Of a stretch of DNA of 64,000 nucleotides, positions 14,439 through 36,700 are shown piece by piece. The stretch comes from Candidatus Omnitrophota bacterium. Its GTDB lineage: Bacteria > Omnitrophota > Gorgyraeia > Zapsychrales > JANLHA01. The translations under genes were made by a program, and so were the position numbers. Location of the stretch: contig JAKLFA010000003.1 of the NCBI GenBank assembly GCA_022711395.1, positions 290,509-354,508 on the forward strand, read 5' to 3'. The notes below the pieces were generated by a model, which searched no databases, was not told where the DNA came from, and saw nothing but the letters and a program-made list of their open reading frames with translations. How positions within the stretch are numbered: position 1 is the first letter of the stretch; each line of letters opens with the position of its first letter.

Positions 14439-14487
14439 CAGGCTTACTCGGTCAGCCCGAAATCGGGTCGGGTAAGCCTGTTTTTTT
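14439..14487 (+). terminator. strong intrinsic terminator inside the pilin array
   Basis: caggcttac ... gtaagcctg stem with a nested cccgaaatcggg hairpin, followed by TTTTTTT (14481-87). Confidence 0.7.
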
Positions 14488-14521
14488 CCACAGCATCCAA
14501 GGACGTCAGGGGGCTGGAGTC

Positions 14522-14911: not shown

Positions 14912-14915
14912 GCTT

Positions 14916-15263
14916 ATGGAATATAAAGAATTAAAATATAAAGAAAGACAGAAGGCGCAGACATTTCTGGAGTATGTTTTGTTGTTCAGCATAGTTGTCG
15001 GGATCGTAATAGCGCTTTCTCCTTTGATGAAACGAGGGATACAGGCGACGGTGAAATCTGTGGCGGACCAGATCGGGCTTCAACAGTGCGCTGAACAGAA
15101 GGGCGGAGAGGACGGGAAAATTGATTTGGTTGATACGCGGGCGGACGTCAGAAAGAAAAAAACACGCATCGAGAGAGTGGGGAATTTAATGTATCAATAT
15201 GATGACGCGACGATTGTGGCGTCGCAACAGCTCACAAATTCGGGGTTTACCAAAGAATATTGA
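14916..15263 (+). CDS. Flp-like pilin paralog 6
   Basis: Internal ATG after the previous stop. QKA|QTFLEYVLLFSIVVGIVIAL, then KRGIQATVKS. Confidence 0.6.
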   Translation: MEYKELKYKERQKAQTFLEYVLLFSIVVGIVIALSPLMKRGIQATVKSVADQIGLQQCAEQKGGEDGKIDLVDTRADVRKKKTRIERVGNLMYQYDDATIVASQQLTNSGFTKEY

Positions 15264-15274
15264 AGGAAAAGGCT

Positions 15275-15589
15275 ATGCTATCTCGAAAAGGACAGTCTGT
15301 GTTAGAGCAATCCATGATCTGGGTTATCATTATGGCGGCGATCCTGACCATCGGGGTTTATTTTAAGCGGGGCATACAAGGACGATGGAGGGCCGCTATC
15401 GACGATGTGGGCGATCAGTATGATCCGTATATGGCGGATACGAACCTTGTTTTTGGCGATCGCGCCAACGTGTTCACCAAGATCTTGACCATGGAAGACG
15501 GAAGCGGGTATTGGACGTTAAGGGAAGATTATACCAATTCTACAAGCACTAAAACGGGCTATGAATCTTTTGGTTCTTTTATACCGTAA
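15275..15589 (+). CDS. Flp-like pilin paralog 7
   Basis: RKG|QSVLEQSMIWVIIMAAILTIGV, then KRGIQGRWRAAIDDVGDQYD. SD aaggaaaagg. Confidence 0.6.
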   Translation: MLSRKGQSVLEQSMIWVIIMAAILTIGVYFKRGIQGRWRAAIDDVGDQYDPYMADTNLVFGDRANVFTKILTMEDGSGYWTLREDYTNSTSTKTGYESFGSFIP

Positions 15590-15594
15590 GGCGC

Positions 15595-17172: not shown

Positions 17173-17182
17173 GAAGACGGTT

Positions 17183-17440
17183 ATGAGATCAAAAAGAGCG
17201 CAGGTAACGCTTGAATTCACAATGGCGATGATGGCGACGATCTTGCTGTTTGCCGGAATGATACGGGTGTTTTTATGGATCGGAAAAAGCATGATCGAAC
17301 AACGCAAGGCCCACGAGAGGGTTTTGATGACCGATTATAGCTCGGCTGGCGTGGCGGGCCCGCTGTATCAGCTTAAAGAGGATTTTTATACGCCGGCAAC
17401 GTTTGATGCTGCGGTCAGCAGCGATCTGTTTAAACATTAA
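17183..17440 (+). CDS. TadE-like pseudopilin (86 aa)
   Basis: KRA|QVTLEFTMAMMATILLFAGM. SD aggaag. Confidence 0.6.
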   Translation: MRSKRAQVTLEFTMAMMATILLFAGMIRVFLWIGKSMIEQRKAHERVLMTDYSSAGVAGPLYQLKEDFYTPATFDAAVSSDLFKH

Positions 17441-17464
17441 AGGACCGACCATAAAGGAATAAGC

Positions 17465-20400
17465 GTGATTCGATTCTTGCGAGAAACAATGTTCCATTCC
17501 ATCCGGAAAGCGTCTTTCAGACAAGGAGCTTCATCACTCCGTTCACAGTCAGGGCAGATCGGGATCATCCTGATCCTGCTGGCCGCTTTTGGGTTGTTGT
17601 TCTATGCGATCACGTTGAATTTTAACCGGGCCTCTGACTTAAAGACCCGGACCCTGATGGCGGCCGAAGCGTCTTCCGCGCTCACGGCGTCTTATTTGGC
17701 CGGAACGGCGGAAAAATTATCCCAGGAACATTTAAAAGGAGAAGCGGGATATTGCGATTCGTCAAGCTGGTTGGAGGCGGTATTTAAGATCATCCTGCTG
17801 TCGATCGTCATTGTTATCGCCATCATCATTAATATTATTCCAGGAGTTGGTTCGCTTGTCAGCGCGCTTTTGTGGGCAGTCGTTGTCGGCGCTATTTTGG
17901 CCATTGTGTTTACGACGATTTCCATTATTTTGCAGATCACCGTGGTTCAGCCCGGGATCACGTCCATGTGGAACGAAATGATGGCCAAGACCTTTAAGGA
18001 GATCGAGGACCAGGTCATTGAGCAGGGCATCCAGATCGCTATTCAGAAACTGGTCGATGACCCGATCGAGCTTCCTGACACACTGGATTTTGACAATGAC
18101 GGTGTTTATGTTGTTGTGAATGGCGGTGAGATCCAGGATGATGAAATTGTGGATTCATACGCGCGGTTCGCGCATTACAATACCCGCCGGCTGCAGGGGG
18201 TCGTGGGAACCCCGTCTTATTATGTGGATGAATTTTTGGCCCGCCTGGAAGACCTTGTTTATTTAATTCCGGGAGGGCCTTCGCCTACGGCTCCGGATTT
18301 GTGGGGGTTTGTGGATGGGCAGACCTTTATACCACCGATCGGAACATGCACGAACGATGCGTCTGTCTGCAATCCGTGCTGTTTTCCCGTGGCCGCGGCT
18401 TGTTGCGGCAGCTGTTCTGGCGATACACGCTGCACGGCCGGACTGCCTCCAGCGGATGTCCCGCCCTGTTGCGCTGTTGCGGCCTGCACGACAGAGGCGG
18501 ATCAGGCGACATGCGCGACGTCAAGGCCATCGTATTGCGGGGCGGAATATCCAGCCAAATGTTATCAGCGGAGCTTTTTGTATGAAGATGGTGACGCGAA
18601 TGACACTACGATCGAGGCATCGCGGGGATTACCGTTCATTTTTGATCCGTTCTATGAAGGGGCTGTTAACAATACAATGCACGCTGCTGGAGGCGCTGTT
18701 CGGATGATCTCATTCAGGGAATGGGTCGGCAGGGATGATGTGTCTGATGCGTATTATGTTGATCCCGAACCCAACGATTCAGTCAGGTGGCATTCGCTGC
18801 ACGCGGCGGCGATCGCGGACAACCGTCAAAAGATCGAAGACGGAGTGGCGACGGCAGCGTTAGCGTTTACGAACAGATTCGTTCTTTCTTTGCAGGACCG
18901 CTTCCGGGCCCAGGACGCCAGTGGGTTTTATATTTCACGGGGTGACGATCAGGTCGGTGTTTTTCCGCTATTCTATCGAATGAGGGACCAATTGGAATTT
19001 CCGACTTCTTTTCCGGGTGCGCATCATTTAGGGTGTTTGTGGTGGAATATTGCGGACCAGGCGTGCAATTACCGCACACTGTTCCGTCCTGTGGACCAGT
19101 TCACTCTTCCGTATTTGATCACCGCGGTCATTCAATACGGCGGACAAACGCTCACGGACAGTCTGGGCACGCCGCTTCGTTACGCGGATTATGCGGGAGA
19201 GCACGCCTTCATCGATATGGGATTTTATAACGCGCCCGATCGGGTGCGAAAAGGAGCCATCAACAGGCTGTTTGCCGCTGATGCTGTCTGTGCTGAAGTT
19301 GCGGCCAGGCCGACAGTGACCATGGCTGCTGTATCAGCATCGCAGAACGCCCGGACAAATATTAATTTTCCCGGGATTAAACAAGGAGCGGATTTCTATT
19401 GTTCGGCCAATTATCCGTATGATGTTGGGTGTTTAAAGCACGGAACGGGTGGATGCACCAGAACGCTTTGGTTTGAACGGATCAACGATGCGACAGGGGC
19501 CAAGGAAATGTATAGCCAGGTGTTTCCGGTGGACTGCGCTTGCGGAGAAGCCGGGTCAGCGCCTGCCGATAAGTGGCCGGATGATTTTCTGGACGCGTTC
19601 CATAAAAAGATCACGGAACTTAAGCTTTTGACCGCGGAATTGAGCGGCCTGAAGATGCGCGGGCTTTTGGTCTCGACATTTTCTGATTGGTATTTAAAGA
19701 TTGCGGACTGGATCGAGCCGGCCTATAACAAGGCCGCCTGTACCGCTAACAGCGCAAGCGTCGCGTGCAAAGAAACGGTGACGCGTAAGGAGCGCTGGGG
19801 CTACCTGTGGTCATTTCGAGAGCATTTTAGAGAGATCGCGCTTATTTTAAATGACTGGTTGAATGACCGGGACGAAGCAGGCGCGACGATGTCTTATCAG
19901 GCAGCCAATTGTTTTGATGCGTGGTGTTTACCCAACCCGGGCTGCACGATGCTGAGCGCCGAAGAGCGGCTGGGATATGATAATAACGGCGACAATCTTT
20001 ATAATGCCAATGATAACGGGCTTACAGCTGTTATAAAATGTATGGATTGGGCGTCAACCGCTGTGACGAACGACCTTACGTATTCTGCAGCGGTCCCGCC
20101 TCCGCGAAACAACAATCCGCAGCTTTTAAAGGACGCCAGCGGCAATAATTATGTGGGGATCAAAGGGAAATACCAGGCGTGTCTCGAGAACTGCGGCACG
20201 CAATATTGCGATGATCTTCCGCGGCCGTTCGTTCCATCGTATGAGGTCGATAAATCGATCACTGCCGGAGCGGACTGGAGGATATTATCAACGCCAACGA
20301 TCCCCGCGGCGGCCGGGGACGCTGTTTATTTGGGCACGTATAAAAAGTGCCTGCGTTCATTGACGGTCGCTCAGTGCACGGCCAACACGGCCGCGATCGA

Positions 20401-21889
20401 CGAATGTCCGGACGCTCCCGGTTATATCGCGCCTGACGGGCAGTATACCGCGCTGATCCAGTCTTTGACGAATCTTTGCCCGACGGCGACCTTTGTTCCG
20501 ACAACCCAGACCTGCCATGATGGAAGCACGTTGCTGGTGGACTGCACGACCCCTCAGACCCAGATCGATTCCTGCATGAGGCATCTTTTAAACTCTTGCC
20601 AGTGGATCGTGCCGGGACAGACCTCGCCATTTTATAACAATTTGATCGCTACAACGGATTGCGCGCAAGCCATTGGCGCCAACCCGGAGACGCCCTACCG
20701 GCAATGGTTAAAGGCCAATATCATGGTCGCGGATCCTTTTGTGAATAAACTTACTATGCGGAAAAACAGCCTGTCTTTGCGGAGGCTGCAGATGATCGAG
20801 GCCAGAGATAAATTTAATGAGGCTTACAATCGGATCACGGAGTTCCTTGATAATGGGACGCCTTTTGACACCCCCGCGGCGGATATCGCCCCGACCAATT
20901 GTCAGGCTGATCTGGGGGCCGGTTATCAGTTGTCGCTGTCCCCGACCCCGGCCGGGTATGCGCGGTCAAATTCTTTGTATACCAGCACAGTGGCTCCCTG
21001 CGCGCCGAGGTTTCCGTATAACCCGACGCAGACCATAACATATCATGACGCAAGCTTCACGGGCACGAATCAGGATTCTCCATCTGAGATGCTGATCGAC
21101 GCGCAGGAAGCAGAGAAGACCTCTGACGCGCTTGCGGCCTTCGCGATCTATGTCTGGCGGGGAAATCCGGATGATGACCCTGATTGGTCCGATGGGGCGA
21201 ATGTTCAGAATGACGGCCTTCTGCATGCCGTCAAAGTCGAGGCTAGGATCCCCCGGCGATGCATGGGGCTGTGTGATTACGCCGGAACAGGGCCGATGGA
21301 TTGGCCCAAGATCGAAACATACACCACGGGGTTTTTGGGGAGCACGCGCTGTTATGAATTGCGGAATCATTTTGGGATGACCAAGGCGCGCGTCATACGG
21401 TTTGATCAATCACCGAACATCTCGAAATTCAAGCTGTTTAACAAGATCCCGTTTTCTCTGCCGAACTTCTCGCATCCGGCGGTGGTCCATGGGCAGAACA
21501 TAACAGGCGGCGATATTTTTGATAAATGCGCGATGCATATTGATCCGCTGATCGAGGATTTGATCGCCCGGAACAGTCCGCCAAAGGTGCCGGCTGTGCC
21601 CATTTATTTGAGGCAGGGCTTCATGATCAATTGGCAACCGAAGTATATATTGACAGATCCGCCGGCAGGACCGCAGTATGAGCAGGACAGAAAAGAAAAA
21701 GCCTGCTGGGAAGCTGTCCATGAGATCTTGCGATACGGCGTGCAGAGCGCCAGCTGCGCGAACTATTACTGGGGCGGCTCAGGCGGGGCCCTTTACGGGA
21801 ACCAGGGCATGCGGGTGAAGTTCACGTCGTGCAATCAAACGTTCATTGAGTCGGGAGACATGGTCGCCCCACACAATATTCCCGAATAA
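17465..21889 (+). CDS. 1474-aa cysteine-rich pilus-associated protein (TadG/tip-adhesin-like?)
   Basis: GTG start (an alternative ATG lies at 17489). N-terminal hydrophobic segment GQIGIILILLAAFGLLFYAITL. A poly-Cys patch (CNPCCFPVAAACCGSCSGDTRC...PPCCAVAAC) sits at about 18340-18560. The gene is embedded between pseudopilins and flp/tadBC. Confidence 0.7.
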   Translation: MIRFLRETMFHSIRKASFRQGASSLRSQSGQIGIILILLAAFGLLFYAITLNFNRASDLKTRTLMAAEASSALTASYLAGTAEKLSQEHLKGEAGYCDSSSWLEAVFKIILLSIVIVIAIIINIIPGVGSLVSALLWAVVVGAILAIVFTTISIILQITVVQPGITSMWNEMMAKTFKEIEDQVIEQGIQIAIQKLVDDPIELPDTLDFDNDGVYVVVNGGEIQDDEIVDSYARFAHYNTRRLQGVVGTPSYYVDEFLARLEDLVYLIPGGPSPTAPDLWGFVDGQTFIPPIGTCTNDASVCNPCCFPVAAACCGSCSGDTRCTAGLPPADVPPCCAVAACTTEADQATCATSRPSYCGAEYPAKCYQRSFLYEDGDANDTTIEASRGLPFIFDPFYEGAVNNTMHAAGGAVRMISFREWVGRDDVSDAYYVDPEPNDSVRWHSLHAAAIADNRQKIEDGVATAALAFTNRFVLSLQDRFRAQDASGFYISRGDDQVGVFPLFYRMRDQLEFPTSFPGAHHLGCLWWNIADQACNYRTLFRPVDQFTLPYLITAVIQYGGQTLTDSLGTPLRYADYAGEHAFIDMGFYNAPDRVRKGAINRLFAADAVCAEVAARPTVTMAAVSASQNARTNINFPGIKQGADFYCSANYPYDVGCLKHGTGGCTRTLWFERINDATGAKEMYSQVFPVDCACGEAGSAPADKWPDDFLDAFHKKITELKLLTAELSGLKMRGLLVSTFSDWYLKIADWIEPAYNKAACTANSASVACKETVTRKERWGYLWSFREHFREIALILNDWLNDRDEAGATMSYQAANCFDAWCLPNPGCTMLSAEERLGYDNNGDNLYNANDNGLTAVIKCMDWASTAVTNDLTYSAAVPPPRNNNPQLLKDASGNNYVGIKGKYQACLENCGTQYCDDLPRPFVPSYEVDKSITAGADWRILSTPTIPAAAGDAVYLGTYKKCLRSLTVAQCTANTAAIDECPDAPGYIAPDGQYTALIQSLTNLCPTATFVPTTQTCHDGSTLLVDCTTPQTQIDSCMRHLLNSCQWIVPGQTSPFYNNLIATTDCAQAIGANPETPYRQWLKANIMVADPFVNKLTMRKNSLSLRRLQMIEARDKFNEAYNRITEFLDNGTPFDTPAADIAPTNCQADLGAGYQLSLSPTPAGYARSNSLYTSTVAPCAPRFPYNPTQTITYHDASFTGTNQDSPSEMLIDAQEAEKTSDALAAFAIYVWRGNPDDDPDWSDGANVQNDGLLHAVKVEARIPRRCMGLCDYAGTGPMDWPKIETYTTGFLGSTRCYELRNHFGMTKARVIRFDQSPNISKFKLFNKIPFSLPNFSHPAVVHGQNITGGDIFDKCAMHIDPLIEDLIARNSPPKVPAVPIYLRQGFMINWQPKYILTDPPAGPQYEQDRKEKACWEAVHEILRYGVQSASCANYYWGGSGGALYGNQGMRVKFTSCNQTFIESGDMVAPHNIPE

Positions 21890-21930
21890 AAAATTAAAAG
21901 ACCGGCCTTGTCATTACAGGCGGAGTTGTT

Positions 21931-22308
21931 ATGATGATATGGAGAAAAAAAAGAAGTCGGCGCGGCACGACCGCCATTGAATACGCGGCTTTGGTCACGA
22001 TGCTGCTGTTCGCGTTTTGGATCGGGCTGCGGGGGTATATCCAGCGGGGCATGCAGGGCCGCTGGAAAGCCGCAGGCGACACTTTCGGACAGGGCAAGCA
22101 GTATGAGCCGTTGGGAACAAACGCCGTCGGCAGGACCAGTGAATGTTTTTATTCGGACCTGATCAATCCATCGACCGGGGTCCGCGTTCGTGAATGGGTC
22201 GACCTGACGTGTTTTGAAACAAACTGCAATTGCACGCTGGAAAGCGACGCCAGCACATATTCTACCGTCTGTATACAATGTTTGAGGAACTGTGACTGCG
22301 TGTTTTAA
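21931..22308 (+). CDS. Flp-like pilin paralog 8 with an 8-Cys C-terminal module
   Basis: RRG|TTAIEYAALVTMLLFAFWIGL, then QRGMQGRWKAAGDTFGQGKQYE, then C..C.NCNC...C.QC..NCDC. Confidence 0.6.
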   Translation: MMIWRKKRSRRGTTAIEYAALVTMLLFAFWIGLRGYIQRGMQGRWKAAGDTFGQGKQYEPLGTNAVGRTSECFYSDLINPSTGVRVREWVDLTCFETNCNCTLESDASTYSTVCIQCLRNCDCVF

Positions 22309-22341
22309 GGCAGGGTTCGACTTCAGGGGGAAAGTCAAGTC

Positions 22342-23199
22342 ATGTTCGTTCTCGCGTTATTTTTCTTTTTTACAACCTGCGTGATCGTTGGGTATTGGAT
22401 CCTGCCGTCAGCGTATCGTCAAACAGTCGCTTTAAATCAAAAAAGGGCCCATCAGCTTTCTTCTAAACTGGAGAGGGTCATTCCCCGGGCCCAGATCCGT
22501 CAAGTGGTCCAGATGTATCTGCTCGCCCCGCTTCTTCTGGGCGGGCTTTTCTTTGTTTTCTTTCCGCAAAAAATGCAGGTTTACGGTGCCGTGGCGGGGG
22601 TCGTGCTCGGTTTTATTTTTCCGTCGATCTACACGCGATTTTTGATCGCGTCCAATAAAAAGAAATTTTCTGATCAGCTGATCGATGTGCTGATGATCAT
22701 GTCCAGCTCGTTCCGCGGGGGGTTAAGCTTGATGCAGTCGATGGAGGCGGTCACGGAGGAGATGAGCGACCCCGCCAATCAGGAGTTCTCCACTGTCCTG
22801 GGGGAAAATAAAATGGGCGTTTCGTTGGAAGAATCGCTGGAACATTTATACAATCGTCAACCGTCGTCGTCGTTGCAGCAGATGATCACGGCGATCCTTC
22901 TGGCCAGAGAGACCGGCGGTAACCTGCCGGCCATTTTTCAGCGTATCGTTGAGGTCATCCGCCAGCGGAAGCGGATCCAGGGGCAGATCGACACTCTGAC
23001 CCTTCAGGGAAAGATCCAGGGCGTGGTCATGGCGGCGTTGCCGATCGTCTTTTTCGGGTGGGTTTCAGGGATCAATCCGGACCATTTTAAGATCATGTAT
23101 GACACGCCGGTTGGAAGGAACCTGCTGGTCGCCTCGTTTCTGCTCGAAGTGGTCGGGGCGTATATGATATGGCAGATCAGTTCATTGAAGGATTTTTAA
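22342..23199 (+). CDS. tadB: Flp pilus assembly inner-membrane protein TadB (T2SSF domain)
   Basis: 285 aa. TM helices and a GspF-like domain (LIDVLMIMSSSFRGGLSLMQSMEAV...LQQMITAILLARETGGNL). Confidence 0.8.
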   Translation: MFVLALFFFFTTCVIVGYWILPSAYRQTVALNQKRAHQLSSKLERVIPRAQIRQVVQMYLLAPLLLGGLFFVFFPQKMQVYGAVAGVVLGFIFPSIYTRFLIASNKKKFSDQLIDVLMIMSSSFRGGLSLMQSMEAVTEEMSDPANQEFSTVLGENKMGVSLEESLEHLYNRQPSSSLQQMITAILLARETGGNLPAIFQRIVEVIRQRKRIQGQIDTLTLQGKIQGVVMAALPIVFFGWVSGINPDHFKIMYDTPVGRNLLVASFLLEVVGAYMIWQISSLKDF

Positions 23200-23217
23200 G
23201 AATCAAAAAGGAGCGGT

Positions 23218-24099
23218 ATGTTTTTTATCGCGGTCTTATTATGGTTTTTGTGCGCCTTTAGTTTTGTCCTGGGGCTGTTCCCCTTGGAAATGGAGGCCCG
23301 TCCGACATTGCAGGCCTTCGGTTATGAACTGCGTCCGACGAAGAAAAGAAAAAATCCTCTGGCGATCGTCCGGTCGGTTGCGATGTTCAACAGACCCTTC
23401 GTCGGTTCCGGGCAGTTGCGCGAAAAGATCCTGCGCGAACTTTCGATGGCGCATGTCAATTTAACGCCTGAGGAATTCTGGCTGTTCAAAGAGATCTCGA
23501 TCGTCGCGATGCTTATCTTTACGTATCCTTTGGTCGAGCCTGATTATATGGTCATCTGGCTTCTTTTGTGCGTGTTTTTTGGATACATGCTTCCGGAATA
23601 CTGGCTGCGCGGAAAGATCAAAAAGGTCAAGGGGATCATCATGAAAGAACTTCCCGACGCTGTTGATCTTTTGGGGCTGTGCGTCAACGCGGGGCTGGAT
23701 TTTATGCTGGCGCTGAAGTGGGTCGTTGAAAAGTCTCCGCCTTCGGTCATGGTCAGCGAGCTTAATATTTTGCTTCAGGAGATCAACGTTGGGAAGACCC
23801 GACGAGATGCTTTAAAGGCCCTTTCAGCCAAATATGATCTTGCGGACCTTGCGACCTTTACGCGGACCCTGATCCAGGCCGACAAGATGGGGACATCGGT
23901 CTCAGAAGCCTTGACCATCCTTTCAGAAGACATGCGTCTTGCCCGGTATCGACGGGGTGAGCAGCTTGCCATGAAGGCGCCTATGAAGCTTCTGGTGCCT
24001 CTTTTGTTCTTTATTTTCCCGGTTGTTGGTATCCTGGTCGGCGGACCGATCTTTATTCAGTTCATGACAGAAAACCCCATGAGCCGCATGACAGGATAG
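23218..24099 (+). CDS. tadC: Flp pilus assembly inner-membrane protein TadC (T2SSF domain)
   Basis: 293 aa. GspF-like domain (LPDAVDLLGLCVNAGLDFMLALKWV...TLIQADKMGTSVSEAL). Confidence 0.8.
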   Translation: MFFIAVLLWFLCAFSFVLGLFPLEMEARPTLQAFGYELRPTKKRKNPLAIVRSVAMFNRPFVGSGQLREKILRELSMAHVNLTPEEFWLFKEISIVAMLIFTYPLVEPDYMVIWLLLCVFFGYMLPEYWLRGKIKKVKGIIMKELPDAVDLLGLCVNAGLDFMLALKWVVEKSPPSVMVSELNILLQEINVGKTRRDALKALSAKYDLADLATFTRTLIQADKMGTSVSEALTILSEDMRLARYRRGEQLAMKAPMKLLVPLLFFIFPVVGILVGGPIFIQFMTENPMSRMTG

Positions 24100-24278
24100 T
24101 CTTTGAAGGATTTTCGGTGTTTTTGTATAGGCTGTTTCTGTTCTCCAAAATGACCCCGCTCAAATCAATGGCAGATGTCTCTATTTTTTGCTTGGCGAAA
24201 AATGGACAGCCTTTTTCTACCTATTTTTTGCTTAAGAGATATCAAATTTATAGTAAATTGCATGGCGTTTTTTTGTTT

Positions 24279-24338
24279 AATGTCCAGGCAGATTTTTAAT
24301 GTCCAATCAGAAAAGTTAAAAAAATAAAATGTCCAGTC
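24279..24338. promoter_or_regulatory. three direct AATGTCCA repeats (at 24279, 24298, 24328) in the AT-rich region upstream of the giant gene
   Basis: ttaatgtccagg, ttaatgtccaat, aaaatgtccagt. Further copies lie in the opposite orientation at 24491-97, 24570-76, 24659-65 and 24695-701. Confidence 0.5.
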
Positions 24339-24481
24339 AAAAGCATAAAGTTTCCGACGGGAAAAGGCATTATTATATATAAGAAACAATTTATTTTCGT
24401 TCGAGAAAATAGTTTTCAAAAAACGCCTAACTTGTTCTAAATAAAGCATTTCATTGATAAAAAAATTTTTGAAAAAATTTG

Positions 24482-24508
24482 TTGACACTATGGACAGGTG
24501 TTATACTT
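24482..24508 (+). promoter_or_regulatory. sigma70-like promoter (TTGACA-15-TATACT) with an overlapping inverted repeat ggtgtt...aacacc
   Basis: ttgaca at 24482-87 and tatact at 24503-08. The palindrome ggtgtt-N8-aacacc spans the -10. A GGAGG motif follows at about 24522. Confidence 0.45.
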
Positions 24509-24593
24509 GAAACACCTAGCCCGGAGGAAAGTGAGTTAAATTTAAGAAACCGCTTTACCTGAAAACATTTTGGACAATTCTTTAATTCTTCAA

Positions 24594-24622
24594 TGACCGC
24601 CTTTCGGCGGTTTTCTTGTTTA
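24594..24622 (+). terminator. terminator/attenuator-like hairpin in the leader of the giant gene
   Basis: accgcc-tttc-ggcggt followed by TTTCTTGTTT. It lies about 90 nt downstream of the promoter and about 85 nt upstream of the likely start codon. Confidence 0.4.
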
Positions 24623-24705
24623 TACAGAACCTTCCGGCTAGCAAACTAACGTACAATCTGGACATAAAAAAGACCCTTTTTATGGACGACAGACTGGACA
24701 TAAAT

Positions 24706-27700
24706 ATGCAGGCCATTCGTGTCTCTGATGCTCAAAGCTCTGAGAACGAGGGAGTCTCTATATCTAATAATGTCCAGAATACATATGGCACGGAGCCTGA
24801 AAAAGCCTTCAAAAGCCGTTTTAAAGGCTGGCTTCGTTTAGTTGCCGCGATCGTTGTTTTTGTCTTTCTTCCGGAGCAGATCAGCTGGGCCATGAACTAC
24901 AATCCGGCGGTCCTCTGGAGCGCTCAGCCGATCTCCATGACCGGCATGCCGATCGCCTCGCAGGCACCGGCGCTGGAGCTTCAGCTGCCGCAGCGGGAAG
25001 CGGCAGAAATGCTGGCGACCAATGTCCAGAGCCTTTTAAGCCGCGCCGCTATGGAAGGCAACCGCAATCTGGATATCCAGATCGCCTCTCCGAACCAAAA
25101 AGAATTCCGTGACATTGACGGTTTGCGTATTTCGGCCAAAACGTCTTTAAGCCCCGAAAAGATCCAGGAAGTCGCTCAATGGCTTCGCAAGCCTGGCATC
25201 CATCCGTTGAACTGCGGCGTTTTCGCCCTTCATGATTTCTTGAAATTAAGCAAAATGCCGATCTCCCTGGAACAGGCGGCTCTTTCGACCCTGTCGGTCG
25301 ACCTTCTTACAGACATTGTCAAGCCCGGAGACCCGACGCTTAAAACGTCCCTTTACGCGATCGATAAGGTCATCTCGCTCTATCAGCTCGATCACGCGGT
25401 CATTAAACTGGAACCGCAAGATATCCTAAAATTGAATGTTCCGTTCATCGCCAATTTCGGACAAGAACACTTTGTGACCGTCACGGCGATCGATGACAAA
25501 GGTGTCCACGTTCAGGACACCGGCGTTGAGCGGATCATGTCTCAGGAAGACTTCTTAAAAGACCTGAGCGGATATGTCTTGATCTTAAAGAAGAATATCC
25601 CGATCTCTGTTTCTTACCAAAATGTTGATGATGTCGAAAAAGCTTTCGTCTGGGGCGACCGCTGGGTCGATCAGTCGGATGAATTGCCCGGTCTTTTGGG
25701 CGATGTCGGCGAAGCCTGGGCGCGCGCGGGGACGGACGTTGCTATCACGGTCGTTATATCGATCGTCACCTGGGGTTTCGGGACATGGTTAAACAGCCTT
25801 GCTGAGGCTGGAAAGATCGCCGGCATGCTGGCCAAGCTCGCCAGCGAGCTGGCCAAAATGGGCACGATCATTGCGGGCATCGCCGCGATCGGTATCGGTG
25901 AACTTGTTAATACCATTAATCAGATCGCGATCATGAACGGCTGGTGGGACGAGGATGTGGGCTTCGTCATGGGCATTGTCCTTTCTACGGCGCTGTCCGT
26001 CGGCTGCGGTATGCTGACGTCGGGCTTTGCCGGAGCTCTGGATTCTTCGGTCAAGGCCGGGACGAACGGGTTGACTGGCGCGGCGCTGGGCGGGGCTGCG
26101 TTCCGGGGATTGGGGACCGGGATCGGCAACGTGCCGGTGGTTTTTGCCCAACGAATGGCGCAGTCGCTGATCGTTGCTTTTCCAAAGGCTTATCTTGCTA
26201 GAGAATTAGATAAAATTATAGACATTGATGATCCTATTTTAAAACAGGCCGCGGTCGGCTTTCTTTCAAGCCTGGGAACACAGATCGGCCTGATGGGACT
26301 TTCGTTTAGTTTAGACCAGGTTGGTTTAGATTCTGTTAATTCATTCTTAGATCTAAAGGCTCCTGAATCTTTGGGAGAATTTTTAAAAGAAGCGGGTCTT
26401 TCGATTGGCCGAGGACTTGTTGGGAATGCGGCAAGCATCGGCTTGCGGTATTTATTTTTAGAAATCGATGATGAAACATTTGCGGCCGACACTCTTGTGT
26501 CCCAGGCTATTGGTCAGGTGGGACAAACCTTTGGAAACCTTTTATTTGATATTGTCAGTTCAGGATCCTTGCCGCAAATTTTAAGAGGGGATGTTAAGAA
26601 AGGAAATTTTGTAGGTGATGACGAGGTTGTTTCTGCCGGACTGTTTGCGCGAGATTCAAACGGCGATTTACAAGAAGCTTATAAGGATGATAAAAACAAT
26701 TATTACATTTTAGGAGAGAACGACCAGAAACAGCTTGTAGGAATAGATAAAATTGTTACCCGCGGGATCGGAGATTCGGGAGTTGTTGAAAGACCTGGAG
26801 ATCAGCTCGAAAGCTTCAGAGGCATAACAATAGATGGTTCTAATTATGCTATACGCAAGAGAGACGGACAGCTGGTCGATGCCAACGACCAAAGGAGCCG
26901 GTATTTTATATTAGATAAACAAGGCCGGCCGGCTTTTCTTAATGTTGACAGCGACGGAAAGGTCACGATCCCTACAGAAAGTTTTGCGCAACTTAAAGCA
27001 AAAGGATTAGATCCCGAAGGAAACTATTCTCTTAAGGAAGACGCTTTAGAAGGGGGATTGCCGCAGCTTCATTTGATGCAGAGGCAGGCCCTATCCTCCA
27101 GATTGCTGGCGGAAGCTGTGCAGGGATTGGTAGGCGTAGCGATCGCCTTTGGAATGGATCGGCTGGAAGATGCGGTGATTGATGAAGATGATGAAGGGCA
27201 AAAAGATAAATACCAGACCCTTGGTTTACGTTTGGTCGGATTTTTGGGAACATTGGTGCTGGCAGAAGGAGCTTCCGCGCTAGGCCGTTCCAGCGGCAGC
27301 GCAGACGGCGCCAGTTTGGAAGGCGGGAGCGTTTTGAGTGCTTTCGGGGACACTTTTTATAGAGGGGGAGCGACCTTTGCTTTACAGCTTGGCAATAATT
27401 TCTTAAGGGCAAACGGCACCATGCCGAGCGGATGGGAGTATGGAAAAGGAAGCTTTGATTCTATTGAACAAATGGTCCGTTTTTATGAGCAGGCCGGCGA
27501 GCGTGCGGGTTGGGGAATGGATTCTATTTCTAAAATCCGCGGTCTGCGTAAACAGCTTGATGAAAACGAAGATCTGACGGATGAACAAAAACATTATTAT
27601 TTCTTTATGGGAGTTTCGAACATAACCAAAAAGGCGAAAGATGAATGGGCCATTGATCAGGTCAATACCAACCTTGCCGGAGGTTTTGTCAACAATGACA

Positions 27701-30700
27701 TGTTCATTGAGGGAGGGATCGTTACAAATATTAAGTCAACATTGGGGATGTTGTTATCGAAATTCCAAAAGCCGGAGATCACAAAAGACCTGTTAGGGTT
27801 TACTTATTATCGATGGGCTCTGGAAAAGACCGGAGAGGTAGAGATTGATGGAAAGACAGCTAAGGCTTTAGAAAAACTTGAGGGTGAGGCTAAGCAGGCG
27901 GGCGAAGAGCAGAGCAAGAAAGTTGATCGTTATGCTTATTATTTATATAAAACATCCGATGTCAAAATTGATACAAATATTATAGCGGAAGAAACAGAGG
28001 TCAGCATTGCCGGGGTCGGCCCTGCCGGATGGGAGATCGCCAAGATCCAGCCTGGCTTTGGAAGGGTGTCGTTTGGGATGGTCCTTGACGATGGCCTTAT
28101 GAAGAAATTAGGAATATCAGAGGGGGATATTCGTGATGGATTGGTAAAGAACGAAAATGGAGATGTGGATCTTGCTAAGACCCGCGATTCTTTGAGCCCG
28201 GATACGGTTGTCGGTATTGAAAATTTATTAAGATTGTTCAAAGAAGACAAAGGCCTGGATCAGATCTTTAACACAACTGTTTATTTAGGAGAAGGAAAAA
28301 CAGATCCAAGAAGCGTTAAGATGGAATATTTTCGTAGCGCTGGCGAAGTAAGTCCTTGGACCGCCAAAATTTTTAAATATAACGCTCCGGAAACAAAACA
28401 ATCCGGAGGACAGGTCGTAGAGAAGAGCAAAACGGTTTATTCTCTGGGATTTCAGCCGGATTATTTGAACCCCAAGGGCGCAGAGGAAGCTAATCCCACA
28501 TGGCTGATTGGACGTTTTAACGCGTCGGCTGCGGTTTATGGATATGACCGCACTCCAGGCGTGAAGGATGAGAAAGAACATATTTTAGAATTTGAAAGCG
28601 CAGCTGGTTTTAGATGGGCTTCGAAGCTTCCCGGGTCGATTGAACAGGGGCTTCCTCTTGGAGAAATGGGAATCGCTCCTGCGGTCAAGTTCGGAAAAAT
28701 GAACGCCAATCCCCGGGTGTTGGCTGTTTATGGGGACAAAACATATTACGCCCGTCAGGGAAGTCAGGGCGGGGCGTTTCAAGCGATCAATGATCTTGTC
28801 GGTTCTTTTATATCAGAGAGAAGTTTTCGTTATGATTCGATAGTCGGCGCTTTAGATGAAGGATATGTTATCTCGACATTTGAAAAATGGGGAGAAGAAC
28901 CCGGGGTCGATAAGACGGGACTTGTGCGTCTCGCCGGCGGAGGACAGCAGCCCAGTACGCTTATGATCTTCAGCGTCAATAAGGACCGTAAGATCGAGAT
29001 GGATCCTCAGACGCTTGAGATCAAAGAAAAAGAAGGTGTCAATGCTTTAAATGGACTGGGAGTGCTTGATCTTTTTACAGCAGGGATCTCGCCTTTGGAG
29101 ATCTTGCGCGGAAATATAGCGACGGGAAGTTTCTCTCCTGAACAAATGGCCGCCTATGAAGCGTCCTGGAAAAAGCTCGACGATAAAGCCCGGCAACTGG
29201 TCATGAAATTGGGCACTGATAAAAAAGTGCTGAAAGAGCTTTTAGATATCGTTAACAGCTATATCGCGCAGAACGGAGCGGCTTCTGCAACGCCGGAAGG
29301 GCTGGAAGCGTTCGTTAATTCAAAGGAAGAAGCGAAAAGCGCGGTCGGCAATCATATGGGGGAAGTGAAGGATCTTTTAGGCTTGCAACAGGCGCTTGAG
29401 GAGGTCAAGAAGCTGAATCCTTTAGATGCGGGGCAGACCCGTTTTGCCCGGGCCCGCATGTTTTTGCCAGCGGAAGATGGCACACATCCTTCTGCGACCA
29501 CCGCATCGTTTTTCCAACAGGGAGTTATTGATGAATTAACCGTAGAGGCGCTTCATCAATATTATGTTAAGGAAAGCGATAACCCGACGCCGCCAGAAGT
29601 GAAATTCGTCAAGCCCGGCACATCAACGGTCGCGGACGCTGAGACGCTGGACTCGCCGTTTGGAGTGCTGCCGAAATACGCGTCTCTTTCTGAAAGCATT
29701 GCAGGCGGTGATATTTTTTATAAAGACGGGCAGCTTGCTGATTATACAGCGATCGGCACAAGCGGAACGATTTTTAATCTGGACGTATCAAGCGGCCGGG
29801 CTATGGCGTATACGGTCGATGCAGCTAGAAAGATAAATGTTCCGGAGGCCTTTGATAAGCGATTTAAAACAGAATATGCCGGCGATTATAAGATGCAGAT
29901 CTTTTCTAACCGCAGCGGTGTTATGGCCGGAGAGGGGTCCATTCTTAATTATGGTAATAATTTCGGCTGGACCATCGGAGGCTTAAATGATTCTGAGATC
30001 AAGAACGCCATCGCTGTTCATGACGGATTGAATGTCCGCTATTTCGGAACGGAAGGGAAGGAAGGGTCAGAAGTAACATTTTTGCAAACACGCACATTTA
30101 GAGAATATAAGCCGACCGCGGATATAGAAAGGAATGCAACATTAACAGAAATCAAAGATGGCAAAACCGAAGTGGTTGGCTTAATTCATAAGATGGATAC
30201 TAAGGTTTTTGAGCTTTCTTCTTTTGAAATTGGCGGCGGATTCAGATTTTCGCTGGAAGGCAAAGGATCGGATTTTAAAGACACCTCGATCGCTCCATTA
30301 TATCGTTTTGCCACAAGCGATGGAGCTACCATAACCGTTAAGCTTCCCGATGAGCCGGATGCGCGTGTTTTGAAAGCTGACGTGTCTTTAGATTTTTCTG
30401 AAAAAGATGATGGGACTTTCCTGCGCCTGTCAAATTTAAGAGGCGATTATGACGTCAAAGCAGAGGCGGCGGGAAATAATTCAGTGGAATTTAGAAAAGG
30501 ACAGAATCTGGTCATTCCTATTATAAGCGCCCTTGGCCGAGCGACGATAAGAGAGCAAGAAAAAACAGTCGATCCGGCTCTTATAGGAGAGATTGCGAAA
30601 AAGGCCTCAACCGAACAGCAGCCTATAGACGCGAGTCAAGTGGTCGCTTCGCATTTTGTTTCTGCCGAGTTTATGGATAAAACGGCGGCGCCAGGGGCAT

Positions 30701-33700
30701 CTGCCGTGTTGGTCGAAGCGAAAGCGGGAAACGACGGCAAAAAGCAATTCGTTCTTTATGTTCTTGAAGCCGAAAACGAAGCGGAGCCAAAGGATCTTGG
30801 CCCTGTTCAGGTCATGGTTTCTCTTGATGAATTTTTACAAAGAGGGAAGATCGCTTTGGGCGAGGGCGAGAAGCAGCAGCCAGTTGTTTTTTCGACAGCT
30901 TCTATTAAAGACGCGAACGGAAATGTTATTACCGGGCTTACAGCGGAAACAGCACGAACGGCCCTAGAAAGCGCGGCAAAGAAAGATCCGTCCAGAGCCG
31001 TTTTTGTTGAACAGGTCCTTGTCCTTTCCAGTGAAGATGAGGAAAGTAAAAAAATGGTGTTAGCACAATTCCCGGAAGGAACCCAAGCAGGAATTCTCGG
31101 GAAAACACTGTTTCTTACGCCGGAAGCCCTGCAGGATCTGGCGAACGTCTCTTTTTCTCAACCGTTGAATCCCTCGCAAATTGTTGAGGTTTCTGCTGCG
31201 GATGGGTCCTCGCGCAAAGTGCTTTCCGATCCAAGCCTTTCGGCGGAAGACGCGATCTTCGCGGCAGGCGTTATACAGCAACAGCTGGTTTCTACTGCTA
31301 AAGTCGAGGACGCGGGATTTTTCTCAAAATTCACACATATTGGAATTGTTGAAGATGACCAAATTATGGGTGGTCAAATAGCCATAAGTTTTGAAGGGGA
31401 TGTTGCCCTTATTACTAAGAGCGGTCTAGCAAAGATCAAGGAGGCTCAAGAAACAGGAGAGTCTTTCTTGGGGCTGCTTGATAGAGGCAGGATCAATTCA
31501 GAGGATCAAAATTTTCAAAATTTAGGTTTTGTCGGAACCCTTGCTAAAGCAGACCCCTTGGCTGAGATCACCTTTGAGAATGGCGGCAAAGCAAATGTTA
31601 TAGCTGTTGATTTTCAAAAAGGAAAAATTCCTGAGGTTCTTGAAGCCAGGGATGAAAATGGAACGCTTATAGGGCAAGCTCTTGTTGAGAAAGCTGAACC
31701 GCGTCTTTCCTATTTATACAATCCTTTGCAGCAGGGGTATCAGGAGGATATTATTGCTGGGTTTGATATGAGCGGACGGCTTTTTGTTCCCTCCACAATG
31801 CCGGTCAGCATTTTTAAAGAAGTTCAAGAAACAGCTTTGCCTGCGGGGGCTCCGGAAGCCATTTTAAAAGAAAAAGGTCTTTTGCCGATGACCAGCCGTT
31901 CATTGAGCGGATTTTCCGGGATCATTGATTTTAATCAAGACGGGCAATTTAGGATCCACGCCGGATCAAGAGGGATCAATGAGGCCATTCAGATCATGCT
32001 CACGAAAGGCACGCCTGAAAGCAAAACAGACTGGCTTGTTACAACCTTGAAGCAGACAAGCGTTGATTATTTCAATGATTCCGGCATTAAATCCTTGAGC
32101 GAGTCTTTTGAGCAAAAGCTGAGCCAGGCTTTTTCCAGCAATAATTGGGTGGCTGTTGATAATGAGGCAAAAATTACAACATTTTTGGAGGGAACAGCCA
32201 AAGGACGAGGCCTTTTGCGTTGGCATGGTGAAGATCTTAATTTGAATGGATCTTCGGGAACGATGTTCGCCAAAGTTTCCGTAATAGATGCCAATGGGCA
32301 GACAAAAGAGCTGAAATCCAAAGAGGTTTCTTATGATCACGCCCTTGCTATGGAGAAAGGGCGAACGAATCAGGGAGACGCGTGGGTTCCAGTCAGCGGA
32401 CGTGTTGCGGAAGCGTACGTGAAAGCGAATGATGTGAGCGATCTCCCGATCGATCTTAAGAATATTCAGATCTATAAGAGACCGATGAGCCAGGAGACGC
32501 TTGATGCGTTAGTTAAATTACGGAAAGCTGTGCAGCGCTATCAAGCTGATAAGATGTTTGGTGACGGGGTATCAGCTCCTCAGGCGGAGATGGACAAGAT
32601 CATCGAGCAGGCCGAACGGCTTTATGGACGGGTAACACCGGATACGATTGTAAAAACCATGCTTTTTGGTGGTGCAGGAATTAACAGCAGCATGGTGGAT
32701 GTTATTTTAAACGAACACAACGCTTCTGTTTTCAGAGATGCCGCTGAAAAGGATGGATTAGCCGTTCAAATTCAAACGGATGTGCATTTGTCTGTATTGT
32801 CCCGAGGGCTAGAAGGTATTAATGCTTATAGCAATGTTTTATTAAGTGGCCTTGATTTGACTTCAGACGCGGGAAAGGCTGAATTCCAAAAAAGGATCAA
32901 GGATCTTAGAGAAACGTTGGCAAATAATCCAAGAGCGTCGGCCATGATCCATCTTTTAAGACGGGAGGATCAGGCGGAGGCCGGTTTGTTAAATCGTGCA
33001 ATTCAGTTTGTAAAGGTGGGTCCGGGAGGGACCGGAGGTCTGGGCTCTAATATCGAAGATCCTGCCAAATTTGCCGCGTTGGTTCTAGTGGCTATTTATA
33101 AATTGACCGAAGGCAAAAAAGATATGATGAATAAGCTGGATCCAGCACAAAATCCAGCGGTGGCGGTTATAAACGCCTTATATAACAGCCCTAAGTTCGA
33201 TCTTGCTGCCGTAGGAAGCCTTTTTGATGAAAAATTGAACGGTTCTGATCTGGGGCTTACAGAGGAGCAAAAGGCAAGTGCTATTAAGTTTTTGACCGAT
33301 GTCGGGAACTCAATGCGGGCGGAAGATGATGCGGAGACCGCTTTTCAATTTATTGTGCGTAATCAGGATCGTCAAAAGATCTTAGGAAGCGTCGAAGTTT
33401 TATTAGGAGAAAAGGTTTCAGAAGAATTAAAACAAAAGATCGGGATCGTTACCAATTTTGAGGGGGCTTTAGATAACGGAAAGGTCAGGAGGGTCGTATT
33501 TGGGGCATTTTCGGATGATACTTACAAAGCCCTTGCAGATTTTGGCAAGCAATTAAGAGCTGTTGTCAATTTGAGCGAAACGTTCAATGACGCCGGATTG
33601 ACCTTGTCCGAAAGTAAAACGTTAGTGGCCCAGGTCAGCGCCCTTCAAGAGGGAGGAAAGGCAGTAAGCCCGGCGGATGTTGTTGTTCAACTGTTTGAAA

Positions 33701-36700
33701 ACAGCGCGTATAAAAATCAAATGATCAAGATTTTTGGAGCCCTGGGAATTAAAGACGAAGAATTCTTAAATGCTGCGGTAACGACTTATCATGCGACGCA
33801 ACGGGAGGCCAAAGAAAACGAATTTCTAAAAATGGCTAATTTTATGGCCTCGGCTGGGCCGGCTAATATTGCACGCATTTTTGCGGACCCGAACAGTGCT
33901 ACTCAAGCGACATTAAAGGCGGATGGCGAAGGAGAGGCTTTATGGATCGCGTTTGGGAAGCCCCAACAGAGCCGATTGGAAGTTTTTATGTTCGCTTTAG
34001 CCAGCGGAAACACTAGTGCGATCGGGCAAATTTTAGGTGAGGCCAAAGTTTCTCCGGAAGAGATCACAAATATACAGATCGCCGCTCTCCAGTTCAGCAA
34101 AGAAGCCGCGGCCAATGATTTTAAACCTGAGATCGTTCAGAAAGCTTTTAAAGAAAAGTTTTTACCGTCTTTATCGGATAAGGCCCTTCAGGCTCTAACG
34201 AATCGCGATACCATTGATCAGATCGCCCGCTTTGTTAATCCGGAATACGACCAAAAACAACTGGAAGTCAATTTCAATCCCTTCCTGGAAGGCTCGGTAT
34301 TCAGCAAAGGGGAACCGGCCGGAACGGACGGTATCACGGTCGCGCGGGATGATTTCGCCGGAGTGAGCTCTGTTCTTAACAGCGGCGCGGTAACGATCAA
34401 GAACGGCACGTTCTTTGTGCAGGAAGCCGGGCTTAAAACGACATCTCCGATCTACGCTCCCGGCGTGATCGGGACGCTGGAGAATGTGATCAACTATAAA
34501 GAAGGCTTACCTGTAAGCGCCTCTTCGATCAATGTTAAGTATTCTGACATGATGACGGCGAAAGGAACAGATTGGAATGTTAGTTATGGCTTGTTCGCTT
34601 TGAAGGCCGGCCAGATGGAAGAAGGTCTTTATGGGCCGCCAGTGCCTGTCGCGGCAACTTTCGGACTGGAAGGGATTGATAAATATCAGCAGGATTATCT
34701 GTTTGTTCCGCAGGATTTTTCGATCGCTGAAGGGGTTGCGGTTAAGCTTGCTAAAGAAAGCGGCTGGTCCCAGACACGGTTTGCTGATGGAAAAACTTTG
34801 AACGGACAGTTTACAAAAGTTGTTTTGAAAGACGGCTTTTTAAGCAGTGCGGCGTTATATGGCGAGGGATCTTTCTGGGAACGGGTAAAGAAGGAGAAGG
34901 CAGGATATAGTCCACGGCAGGCTACTGATATGGATTTTGCGACGTTTGCTATGGTTGAAGGAGAAACGGTCAAGAACGATCAGGGGGTTGAGGAAAAATA
35001 TACACGATATGCAACACCGGCTAACGTCGATAAGACCCTTGGTTATATAAATGAGAAAAGCATACCGAAGGACATGGGCCCTGATGGAAAGAGGTCTTTA
35101 GAGGTCATGAAGGCCGAAGGCGGACGATTGGTTTTTGCTCTTGGAGCGACAGGAGCAGATGGTAAAGGATATTTCACCGGGATTCTTCGGCCGGATTTTA
35201 GAAGGTCTGGGAGCTTGCATTTGTTCTCCAAAGACGCGCGCATTAAGCCGGTTTATGATAAGGATGGAAAGGTTATTAAAGGTTCTTTTGACCTGAGCAA
35301 AGCTGTTACACAATTCGTTGAAGGAACCGGCGATTTTAATACAAAAGGGTTGCCAAAATTTTTAAACGCTCTTTATGATCAATTTTATGCAGCGGAAGGG
35401 GTTCAGCGTAGTGTTGCTGTTAAAGATGGACTATATGCTTATGGGCGCATTGCTCACGTTGTCCCCCAAGGAAAACAAGCACAGGAAAACTATAGCAATA
35501 TATCAGATGCCCCGGAAGATGTTTTAGTTGGGCAGGTTTTTACAGAAGATGGAGTAAAATATTTTGGAGCAGGGGATCTGGGAAGATTTACCGACAATGC
35601 TTTTGTTGGGTTGGCCAAAACAGGGTCGTTTAAGGTAGATCCTTCGCAAAAAACAATTCCGAGTTGGCTTCTTTTTGAAGAAAAAGGTCTTCAAGTCCTG
35701 GGAGAAGGCGGGCAGTGGTTGGGTGTGAGCAAAGATACTTATAATATTAATATCTATCAGATGGCCCTTGGTCAGCGTGAGGATGGGTCGTATGCTCCAC
35801 TGTTGACCCGGGAACAGAAGGTTGACCGCAAAACGACATGGCGAGAAGTGAGGGTCCAGGGAGATGATAAAGAGTTTGAAAAAGCAAATCAGGAACTGCT
35901 GGACGCAAAGCGTCTACAGTTGGTCTTCTTGAAGGAGAAGTTGTCTGGAATGGGAGACGTCGTTCTGGAGCGTCGCCAATGGGAATTTTCGACAATGCGA
36001 AAAATGAACAGCACGATGGCCTGTCACGGGGGAGGGGTTTCGTGTGAGCGCCCTGCCGCGATCAAAGAATTAGACCGGCTGGAGGCGCAAGTTAGAGATT
36101 TGGAGAATCAAGTGGGTCTGCTTTCTGCAGAGTTCCGGCCGATCATTTCTTACGGCTCCAATTGGGGCTATTTGACGGATGATAATGGTAATGCGACGCG
36201 TATGGAGTATTTTTTGGAAAATGGTGAACTTGTCGGACAGTTTGGAGCGGGGGAATCCGGAAGGGCCGTCGGCATGCCGATCATTTCATATCAAAAGTTG
36301 ATCAGCGATCCTTTTAATGAAATAGCCAAGGAGGGCGCGGAGAATACGCTTCTTGGTAAGCTGGCGTCTGGTGATATAAAGACGGGAGATGCGGTCAAGC
36401 TTCCGAATTCGATCGATCTTCATGCGGGCGATATTACACATGTGGTGAAATTAAAAGGAAGGCTGACCAGAGACCAGGTTGGGAGGGACAATACCGCACT
36501 TTATGATTTAAGCGGTGATTTTAGTGTGGGGATCGTGATCGATGGTGTTGATACTTATAAAGGGGAGATCAGGGCCCGGACAACAATGGATATTCCTGGC
36601 ACGCAGATCCTTTTACCGGACCCAGACTCGGTCCTGATCGATAAGCGCGCTAGTATCTATAATCCGCTGAGCGATACTAAAAAATTTGATATTGTAAAAG

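Follow-up and report, generated by a model that had tools for sequence, protein, structure and literature searches.

The window considered here is a 64,000-nucleotide stretch of contig JAKLFA010000003.1, from the genome of a Candidatus Omnitrophota bacterium, in which a single giant gene follows a Tad/type II secretion-like locus. The open reading frame (ORF) of this gene occupies positions 24682-64000 of the forward strand. It starts at the ATG at 24682 and remains open over 13,106 codons, with zero stops, until base 64000, where the end of the window cuts it, and only its 5' part is therefore covered. The original prediction for this DNA, which was made from the sequence letters, had put the protein at more than 13,000 residues, and the open frame bears this out. 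The ATG at 24682 is adopted as the start because homologues share an N-terminus of the MDxRLD type.

The subject of the present analysis is a domain near the N-terminus of this protein, at residues ~150-310 (25129-25611, forward strand), assigned through Pfam, AlphaFold, Foldseek, and PDB profile matches to the papain-fold cysteine peptidases of family C39. It belongs to a head region that also comprises a signal-peptide-like segment and three hydrophobic segments. This head stands before a very long body of low conservation.

Identity and predicted catalytic residues of the C39 domain

Profile evidence for the assignment comes from several sources. The Pfam family Peptidase_C39 (PF03412) matches residues 222-305 (E = 1.4e-10) at 41.6 bits, well above its gathering score of 22, and it is the only Pfam family with a match at E <= 1 in residues 1-500. 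A precomputed PF03412 match is present in each of the 17 close homologues as well. Searching the PDB with residues 131-330 as a single sequence (phmmer) returned noise only, and family profiles were needed. A profile of 15 close homologues finds LahT150 (6mpz) and the PCAT1 peptidase domain (7n87); in its alignments, His263 falls on the His of LahT150 NHFVV and PCAT1 AHFVV, and Asp279 on the Asp of LahT150 INDP and PCAT1 VADP. A broader profile, built from 21 diverse members, recovers LahT150 (1.4e-9), PCAT1 (5.5e-7), ComA (4e-5), and the C39-like domain of HlyB (1.4e-3).

Structural modeling leads to the same family. An AlphaFold model based on 18 sequences reaches pLDDT values of 84-96 in 10-residue blocks over residues 151-320. 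The domain core spans ~150-310, with a helical extension from ~104. The best Foldseek matches in the PDB are 6mpz (E 3.9e-6, TM 0.70), 7n87 (TM 0.67), PCAT1 cryo-EM chains, and 5xe9, a ComA structure (TM 0.71), with TM values normalized to the target and 134-143 aligned columns. Ranked lower are the papain-like toxin 9l5u, the HlyB C39-like domain (3zua), and a Vibrio C39-like domain. In the modeled secondary structure, Cys178 opens a helix (178-189), His263 opens a strand (263-270), and Asp279 closes another (275-279); as modeled, this placement of Cys, His, and Asp is the papain-fold arrangement. Taken by profile, fold, and triad, residues ~150-310 almost certainly belong to peptidase family C39 proper (clan CA, papain fold). 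The C39-like domain that had been proposed at residues of about 150-300 is thus upheld by a Pfam match, by a PDB profile match at E 1.4e-9, and by a fold match with a TM of ~0.70.

The three motifs that carry the triad are NCGVFAL at residues 177-183 (25210-25230), EHFVTV at 262-267 (25465-25482), and DTG at 279-281 (25516-25524). They supply a predicted nucleophile, Cys178 (codon 25213-25215, forward strand), at the N-terminus of its helix; a predicted general base, His263 (25468-25470, forward strand), at the start of its strand; and the third triad member, Asp279 (25516-25518, forward strand). Cys178 and His263 are 85 residues apart and Asp279 follows His263 by 16, exactly the Cys and His spacing and the succeeding DTG that had been read from the sequence. 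All of the 17 closest homologues keep Asn177, Cys178, His263, and Asp279.

Conservation extends well beyond this close set. A profile search of 1.84 billion representative proteins returned 1,050 relatives at E <= 1e-3, of which 333 reach E <= 1e-10 and 76 reach E <= 1e-30. Residue counts were taken on 170 domain copies from the best 157 of these proteins, with ungapped copies as denominators. The triad is conserved in ~95% of the copies: Cys178 is kept in 154/161 and His263 in 162/168, and the position of Asp279 holds Asp or Glu in 149/164. The most conserved residue of the subfamily, above the triad itself, is Asp207 (codon 25300-25302, forward strand), which is Asp in 166 of 167 ungapped copies and lies between the Cys and a loop with the sequence KTS. 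Trp167 and Ser223 are conserved in the subfamily too. The stretch from the Cys helix to the KTS loop is about 10 residues longer than what we take to be its length in PCAT1 and canonical C39 domains.

The cysteine content of the surrounding polypeptide adds a separate line of evidence. Only six of the 13,106 residues of the giant ORF are cysteines (0.046%, at positions 178, 442, 3781, 3788, 8970, and 8973), compared with 1.48% in twelve neighboring ORFs. The tendency is shared across the family, with a mean of 0.144% in 42 family proteins longer than 1,500 residues, and in two relatives, P0045 (5,716 aa) and P0150 (2,414 aa), the sole cysteine is the one aligned with Cys178. Because polypeptides otherwise purged of cysteine keep exactly this residue, chemistry at the Cys178 thiol is supported, and a noncatalytic domain of the HlyB type is disfavored. 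On these sequence grounds, the domain is likely to be a working endopeptidase rather than a degenerate C39-like binding domain.

The N-terminal head and the divergent body

Ahead of the domain lies an extended signal-peptide-like segment (residues 42-70; 24805-24891, forward strand). It consists of a basic stretch (AFKSRFKGWLR), an 11-residue hydrophobic core (L53-L63), and the sequence PEQISWA, in which small residues occupy positions -3 and -1. The family repeats the pattern: a basic FKSRFKxWIR, a hydrophobic core of 11-13 residues, and then P-E/D-Q-x-S/A-W/Q-A. The motif P[ED]Q.[SAT].[AGS] is present in 104/157 family proteins. Owing to the short hydrophobic core, the helix-breaking proline, and the small residues at -3 and -1, the segment looks less like a stable anchor than like a Sec signal peptide that can be cleaved and whose N-region is unusually long. 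Residues 42-80 (24805-24921), including PEQxSWAFNYNPxVLW, are strongly conserved. An ordinary signal peptide would not usually show such conservation, and a dedicated step of sorting or processing may lie behind it.

The original prediction had the peptidase directly following a membrane anchor. Its N-terminal position holds, but the C39 core begins 80-100 residues past the hydrophobic segment, and that segment has the look of a cleavable signal peptide. Charges around the segment give an orientation. In the window protein, five K/R residues stand just before the hydrophobic core and none occurs in the next 40 residues; the family means are 3.4 K+R in the 18-residue flank before the core and 1.6 in the 30 residues from PEQ. 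Since the basic residues precede the core and none follows it, the positive-inside rule predicts an extracytoplasmic C39 domain that faces the periplasm.

Behind the domain, a hydropathy scan marks three hydrophobic segments (residues 352-370, 391-409, and 426-444; 25735-26013, forward strand). The loop charges flanking them fit an out-in-out-in path, and we infer that these segments would tether the C39 domain to the inner membrane. Between the domain and the first segment lies the motif KAFVWG (residues 320-325; 25639-25656, forward strand), which is modeled with pLDDT values of 81-95 and falls within a conserved block at residues 318-331. In the family, the post-domain motif takes the form [FYA]-hydrophobic-W-G in 103/104 matches. 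The AlphaFold model packs the FVWG segment confidently against the domain, and KAFVWG is a candidate either for a self-cleavage site or for a structural element. A second W-G site upstream of the domain was also considered and was rejected; a hydrophobic-W-x pattern is common there, but Gly comes next in only 51/119 cases.

The head recurs across the family. The C39 domain starts within the first 450 residues in 146/157 family proteins, many of which run for thousands of residues to the end of their contig. The head of the Omnitrophota giant proteins is composed of a long basic N-terminus with a short hydrophobic core and a PEQxSWA motif, which is signal-peptide-like, a C39 domain, and three membrane segments. 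A different architecture appears in eight relatives (P0028, P0069, P0070, P0074, P0075, P0077, P0079, and P0080), which have two to three internal C39 copies (~600 to ~1,800) and a plain N-terminal hydrophobic segment with no PEQ.

The body of the protein follows another pattern. The first 3,700 residues of the window protein were aligned with 24 orthologues, 25 proteins in total, and the only conserved blocks are residues 42-81 (the signal region) and 167-331 (the C39 domain and AFVWGxxW). The mean fraction of the majority residue is 0.44-0.64 at residues 1-300 and 0.13-0.29 from residue 600 onward. Past residue ~331 (window ~25675-35780), the 25 orthologous loci are barely alignable, with a majority fraction of ~0.2, despite the retained synteny and head. 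By this comparison, the body beyond ~331 diverges very fast. A conserved N-terminal head for trafficking and processing, joined to a body that changes quickly, recalls the design of polymorphic toxins with their 'releasing peptidases' (PMC3482391).

Recognizable domains are sparse in the remaining giant ORF. Besides C39, a single Pfam domain scores above threshold, a Peptidase_M23 (lysostaphin-type peptidoglycan endopeptidase) at residues ~12,620-12,708 (62539-62805), with 38 bits against a cut-off of 28.7. A sub-threshold match to Abhydrolase_6 (alpha/beta hydrolase) lies at residues ~10,495-10,670. No SecA-like domain was found by Pfam in the 13,106 residues available from the cut ORF. In one related locus (L001, positions 8566-19660 of an ENA contig), gene calling splits the giant homologue into a run of ORFs that abut or overlap (364, 525, 190, 86, 624 ... 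residues), which looks like a giant ORF broken by assembly frameshift errors.

The upstream Tad/type II secretion-like locus

The 20 kb in front of the giant gene (4735-24099) are filled by a Tad/type II secretion-like locus. Its core, recognized by Pfam, lies on the forward strand at 4735-10556 and encodes a Rotamase_2 protein, an RcpC/CpaB protein, a secretin, and a traffic ATPase in which ParA-like and T2SSE parts are fused. The secretin gene (6637-8352) ends in a TonB_C domain. The ATPase (8394-10556) has 720 residues and joins a ParA/MinD-like part of the CpaE type to a T2SSE part of the CpaF type. The locus also holds a DUF192 gene. Two further ORFs lie within it: an 88-residue, Cys-rich, zinc-ribbon-like ORF on the opposite strand (10911-11177) and a 560-residue ORF (11304-12986, forward strand) that has weak HTH/transposase-like N-terminal matches and interrupts the locus.

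Class III signal peptides of the Flp/archaeal pilin type (G/A|QxxxEY) are encoded by seven small genes at 13164-15589 on the forward strand, and an eighth pilin-like gene lies at 21931-22308. The predicted cleavage residue of these eight pilins is Gly in four and Ala in four (e.g., RRG|QSTLEY, KRA|QQTAEY, RRA|QSTLEY). Two much larger ORFs, of 1,474 residues (17465-21889) and 525 residues (15595-17172), have pseudopilin-like class III N-termini, with the signal sequences SG|QIGIIL and SA|QSAAEL. The 1,474-residue ORF is rich in cysteine (50 Cys, 3.4%, with CC and CxxC runs), in contrast to the cysteine-poor giant protein. Two T2SSF (PF00482) genes for TadB/TadC-like platform proteins (22342-24099, forward strand) stand immediately upstream of the giant gene. 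No gene for an A24 prepilin peptidase was found in the window.

Gene order is well conserved. A set of 45 loci from species-representative genomes was compared, and the openness of the ORF was judged on 44; the closest species-representative relative shows 80% identity over the domain. In 40/44 loci, no stop closes the domain ORF before the fetched DNA ends (at least 3,650 residues where 10 kb were fetched). The conserved order comprises the homologues of the 525- and 1,474-residue ORFs, a pilin, TadB, TadC, and then the giant gene, and these five upstream neighbors were found in 25, 31, 34, 38, and 41 loci, respectively, with TadB and TadC on the same strand. The record titles of the 45 loci refer mostly to Omnitrophota or Omnitrophica. 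About 20 are TPA metagenome-assembled genomes entitled 'uncultured Planctomycetales' (L003-L007, L011, L012, and L014, among others), a title that is probably a placeholder or a mis-assignment.

The gap between tadC and the giant gene (24100-24681, 582 nt) has 33% GC, compared with ~50% in the flanking genes, and values of 23-38% GC occur in 12 related loci examined. A terminator-like hairpin with a T-run lies at 24595-24612, ~70 nt before the ATG; it is kept, with compensatory changes, in two related loci (L002 and L003), and a TACAAT-like element follows it. The gap gave no Rfam match, and no sigma-70 consensus promoter was found in it.

Proposed role, alternatives, and significance

Taken together, we favor an active periplasmic C39 endopeptidase that processes or releases the giant protein, or else a partner from the secretion machine, a statement to which, as a whole, we give a probability of roughly 60%. 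According to this proposal, the signal segment would carry the chain across the inner membrane, and the C39 domain would fold on the periplasmic face, where the membrane segments that follow would hold it. It would then cut the giant protein, or a partner handled by the Tad/type II secretion-like machine, leading to maturation or release from the membrane. The C39 domain would thus act as a cis-encoded 'releasing peptidase'. That the substrate is the giant protein itself or a partner from the operon is plausible, at somewhat below even odds.

Several observations weigh against this reading. The Pfam alignment spans profile positions 45-131 of 133 and leaves the Cys-bearing third of the profile unaligned. 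The 21-member profile sets the family NCG on the Cys of LahT150 QMEALECG in a weak local alignment (4.2 bits). Because Pfam omits the Cys-bearing part, the placement of Cys178 is drawn from the fold match and from such weak local alignments. The oxyanion-hole Gln expected six residues before the Cys is missing: position 172 is Gly in the window protein and differs from member to member in the family (G, E, D, S, N, K). The family copies have no conserved Gln upstream of the Cys, and Asn177 (107/161) or Pro directly precedes that Cys. Since the canonical oxyanion Gln is missing, catalytic competence is not guaranteed. Canonical C39 domains act in the cytoplasm, and the periplasmic placement proposed here is derived from hydropathy and charge rules.

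The search for a substrate adds to these points. The original prediction had suggested looking for leader-like motifs of the Gly-Gly type downstream. Regular expressions compared with shuffled sequences gave no strict pattern in the giant ORF and five of medium stringency versus 5.6 expected, which is no enrichment, and the 25 aligned orthologues share no such conserved motif over their first 3,700 residues. The same alignment contains no conserved site of any kind downstream of residue 331, and the evidence gathered identifies no substrate of the C39 domain. For a conserved cut in cis, the candidates would be limited to two sites that flank the domain, the SWA junction and the FVWG motif, and for the SWA junction a signal peptidase I site is the simpler explanation.

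The closest precedents are other Omnitrophota proteins. West-Roberts et al. (2023; bioRxiv 10.1101/2023.11.21.568195) described N-terminal C39 domains on giant proteins of this phylum ('Archaeovorins'), near the N-terminus of the giant ORF and beside a predicted signal peptide. The locus upstream is the same, with Rotamase_2, rcpC, homologues of gspD/E/F, and genes with class III signal peptides, and so are the proposals made for the domain, namely C39 cleavage of the giant protein or of other substrates. The proteins of that study are described with a divergent SecA DEAD-like domain and many enzyme domains further along the chain. In the 13,106 residues available from the cut ORF here, Pfam shows C39, M23, and the sub-threshold Abhydrolase_6 only. 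Nothing essential differs from the West-Roberts proteins, and the window is one more instance of them. An architecture cluster of 24 long Omnitrophota proteins with PF03412 has been reported in a 2026 preprint (10.64898/2026.06.07.730766). NCBI names one homologue 'cysteine peptidase family C39 domain-containing protein'.

Among characterized enzymes, the peptidase domains of PCAT/AMS exporters (LahT150, 6mpz; PCAT1, 7n87/4ry2; ComA, 3k8u/5xe9) share the Pfam family, the fold, the order of the triad, the His-Asp spacing of 16, and a GTS-like motif in the substrate loop, which reads KTS here. They differ in that the present protein has no ABC domains in cis, no Gln at Cys -6, and no detected Gly-Gly leader substrate, and in that their peptidase is cytoplasmic, whereas charges and the signal-peptide-like N-terminus predict a periplasmic one here. 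Identity as a bacteriocin ABC transporter of the PCAT/AMS type was considered and is ruled out. Pfam finds neither ABC_membrane nor ABC_tran across the 13,106 residues, and the NCBIfam PCAT transporter models remain far below threshold (17 and 12 bits against cut-offs of 853 and 500).

Other systems resemble the proposal in logic. LapG is a periplasmic cysteine protease (C93) that frees the giant adhesin LapA from an N-terminal retention module. The cysteine protease domain (C80) of MARTX toxins autoprocesses a giant toxin; it lies inside the toxin chain, and inositol hexakisphosphate activates it in the host. By analogy, a thiol protease would likewise cut a giant exported protein here. The peptidase families differ, with no Pfam match to C93 or C80 in residues 1-500, and LapG is a separate protein.

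A more specific version of the favored reading can be formulated. The signal peptide, the C39 domain, and the membrane segments might constitute an ABC-independent periplasmic head that couples a hypervariable giant protein to a Tad-like machine. A cut in cis at a noncanonical site, for which FVWG is the obvious candidate, would free the payload to leave through the secretin. This version is doubtful, and we offer it as a tentative extension of the processing or release role.

Of the alternatives, two stand at about the same level, and both are unlikely. The first is that the domain is an effector protease directed against proteins of prey or competitors; as a toxin-type C39/papain-like peptidase, it would be delivered together with the giant protein and with the M23 domain near residue 12,650. 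This alternative draws on the Foldseek match to 9l5u, a papain-like cysteine protease toxin (chain B, E 1.5e-4; chain A, E 4.7e-4), on the M23 peptidase carried by the giant ORF, and on the proposal that giant Omnitrophota proteins are predation factors (West-Roberts et al. 2023, 10.1101/2023.11.21.568195). Polymorphic toxins, for which Zhang et al. 2012 (PMC3482391) described both 'releasing peptidases' and Tox-PL-C39 toxin domains, are comparable in placing papain-like or C39-like domains in very long secreted proteins with a conserved trafficking part and a variable payload. However, Tox-PL-C39 is a C-terminal toxin domain, whereas the present domain belongs to a conserved N-terminal head. 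An invariant, membrane-proximal position in 146 of the 157 proteins suits trafficking or processing better than a payload.

The second alternative is a noncatalytic C39-like tether, which in the manner of HlyB would bind the unfolded giant chain or a partner during export and cut nothing. The HlyB-type domain has reportedly lost its nucleophile (Tyr for Cys) and is not a protease. The HlyB C39-like domain (3zua) appears among both the fold and the profile matches, and it shares an N-terminal position in a membrane protein that exports a very large unfolded protein. The missing oxyanion Gln and the failure to find Gly-Gly substrates in the scan of the giant ORF would fit a tether, a possibility also raised by West-Roberts et al. 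2023 (10.1101/2023.11.21.568195). Retention of Cys, His, and Asp in ~95% of the copies speaks against it, as does survival of the Cys in proteins otherwise purged of cysteine. The nucleophile is lost in HlyB, whereas the triad here is intact and strongly selected, and the domain is not of the HlyB-type C39-like kind.

Less probable still is that the domain replaces a prepilin peptidase and processes the eight pilins and the two large pseudopilin-like proteins. This idea takes up the suggestion of the original prediction that the pilins might be the partners cleaved. It would agree with the absence of an A24 gene from the 24.6 kb upstream, with the constant position of the giant gene behind TadB/TadC, and with Gly or Ala at P1 of the pilins, residues that C39 enzymes accept at this position. 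Yet P2 of the pilins is Arg, Lys, Tyr, or Met and never Gly, and an A24 gene may lie elsewhere in the genome. Prepilin cleavage takes place on the cytoplasmic side of the membrane, whereas a periplasmic location is predicted for the C39 domain. Finally, the notion that Cys, His, and Asp line up by chance with no domain behind them, to which only the insignificant single-sequence phmmer search lends anything, is refuted by the Pfam match above gathering, the profile and fold matches, and the 1,050 relatives at E <= 1e-3.

As for novelty, the presence of an N-terminal C39 domain on Omnitrophota giant proteins is already known from the 2023 preprint and from NCBI automatic names, and the 2023 preprint offers the same interpretation. 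Beyond the texts of the 2023 and 2026 preprints, the present analysis adds the family-wide conservation of the triad, the persistence of the nucleophile in proteins purged of cysteine, two motifs (PEQxSWA and FVWG), Asp207, and the recognition that conservation within the first 3,700 residues is confined to the head.

The giant proteins of Omnitrophota rank with the largest proteins known. Should the ABC-independent head prove to be real, it would give the largest known bacterial proteins a new route of secretion and maturation, and it would define a new specificity class among C39 peptidases. The C39-led head is the only part conserved between orthologues and the sole place that tolerates cysteine, which makes it the most tractable entry point into the biology of these proteins.

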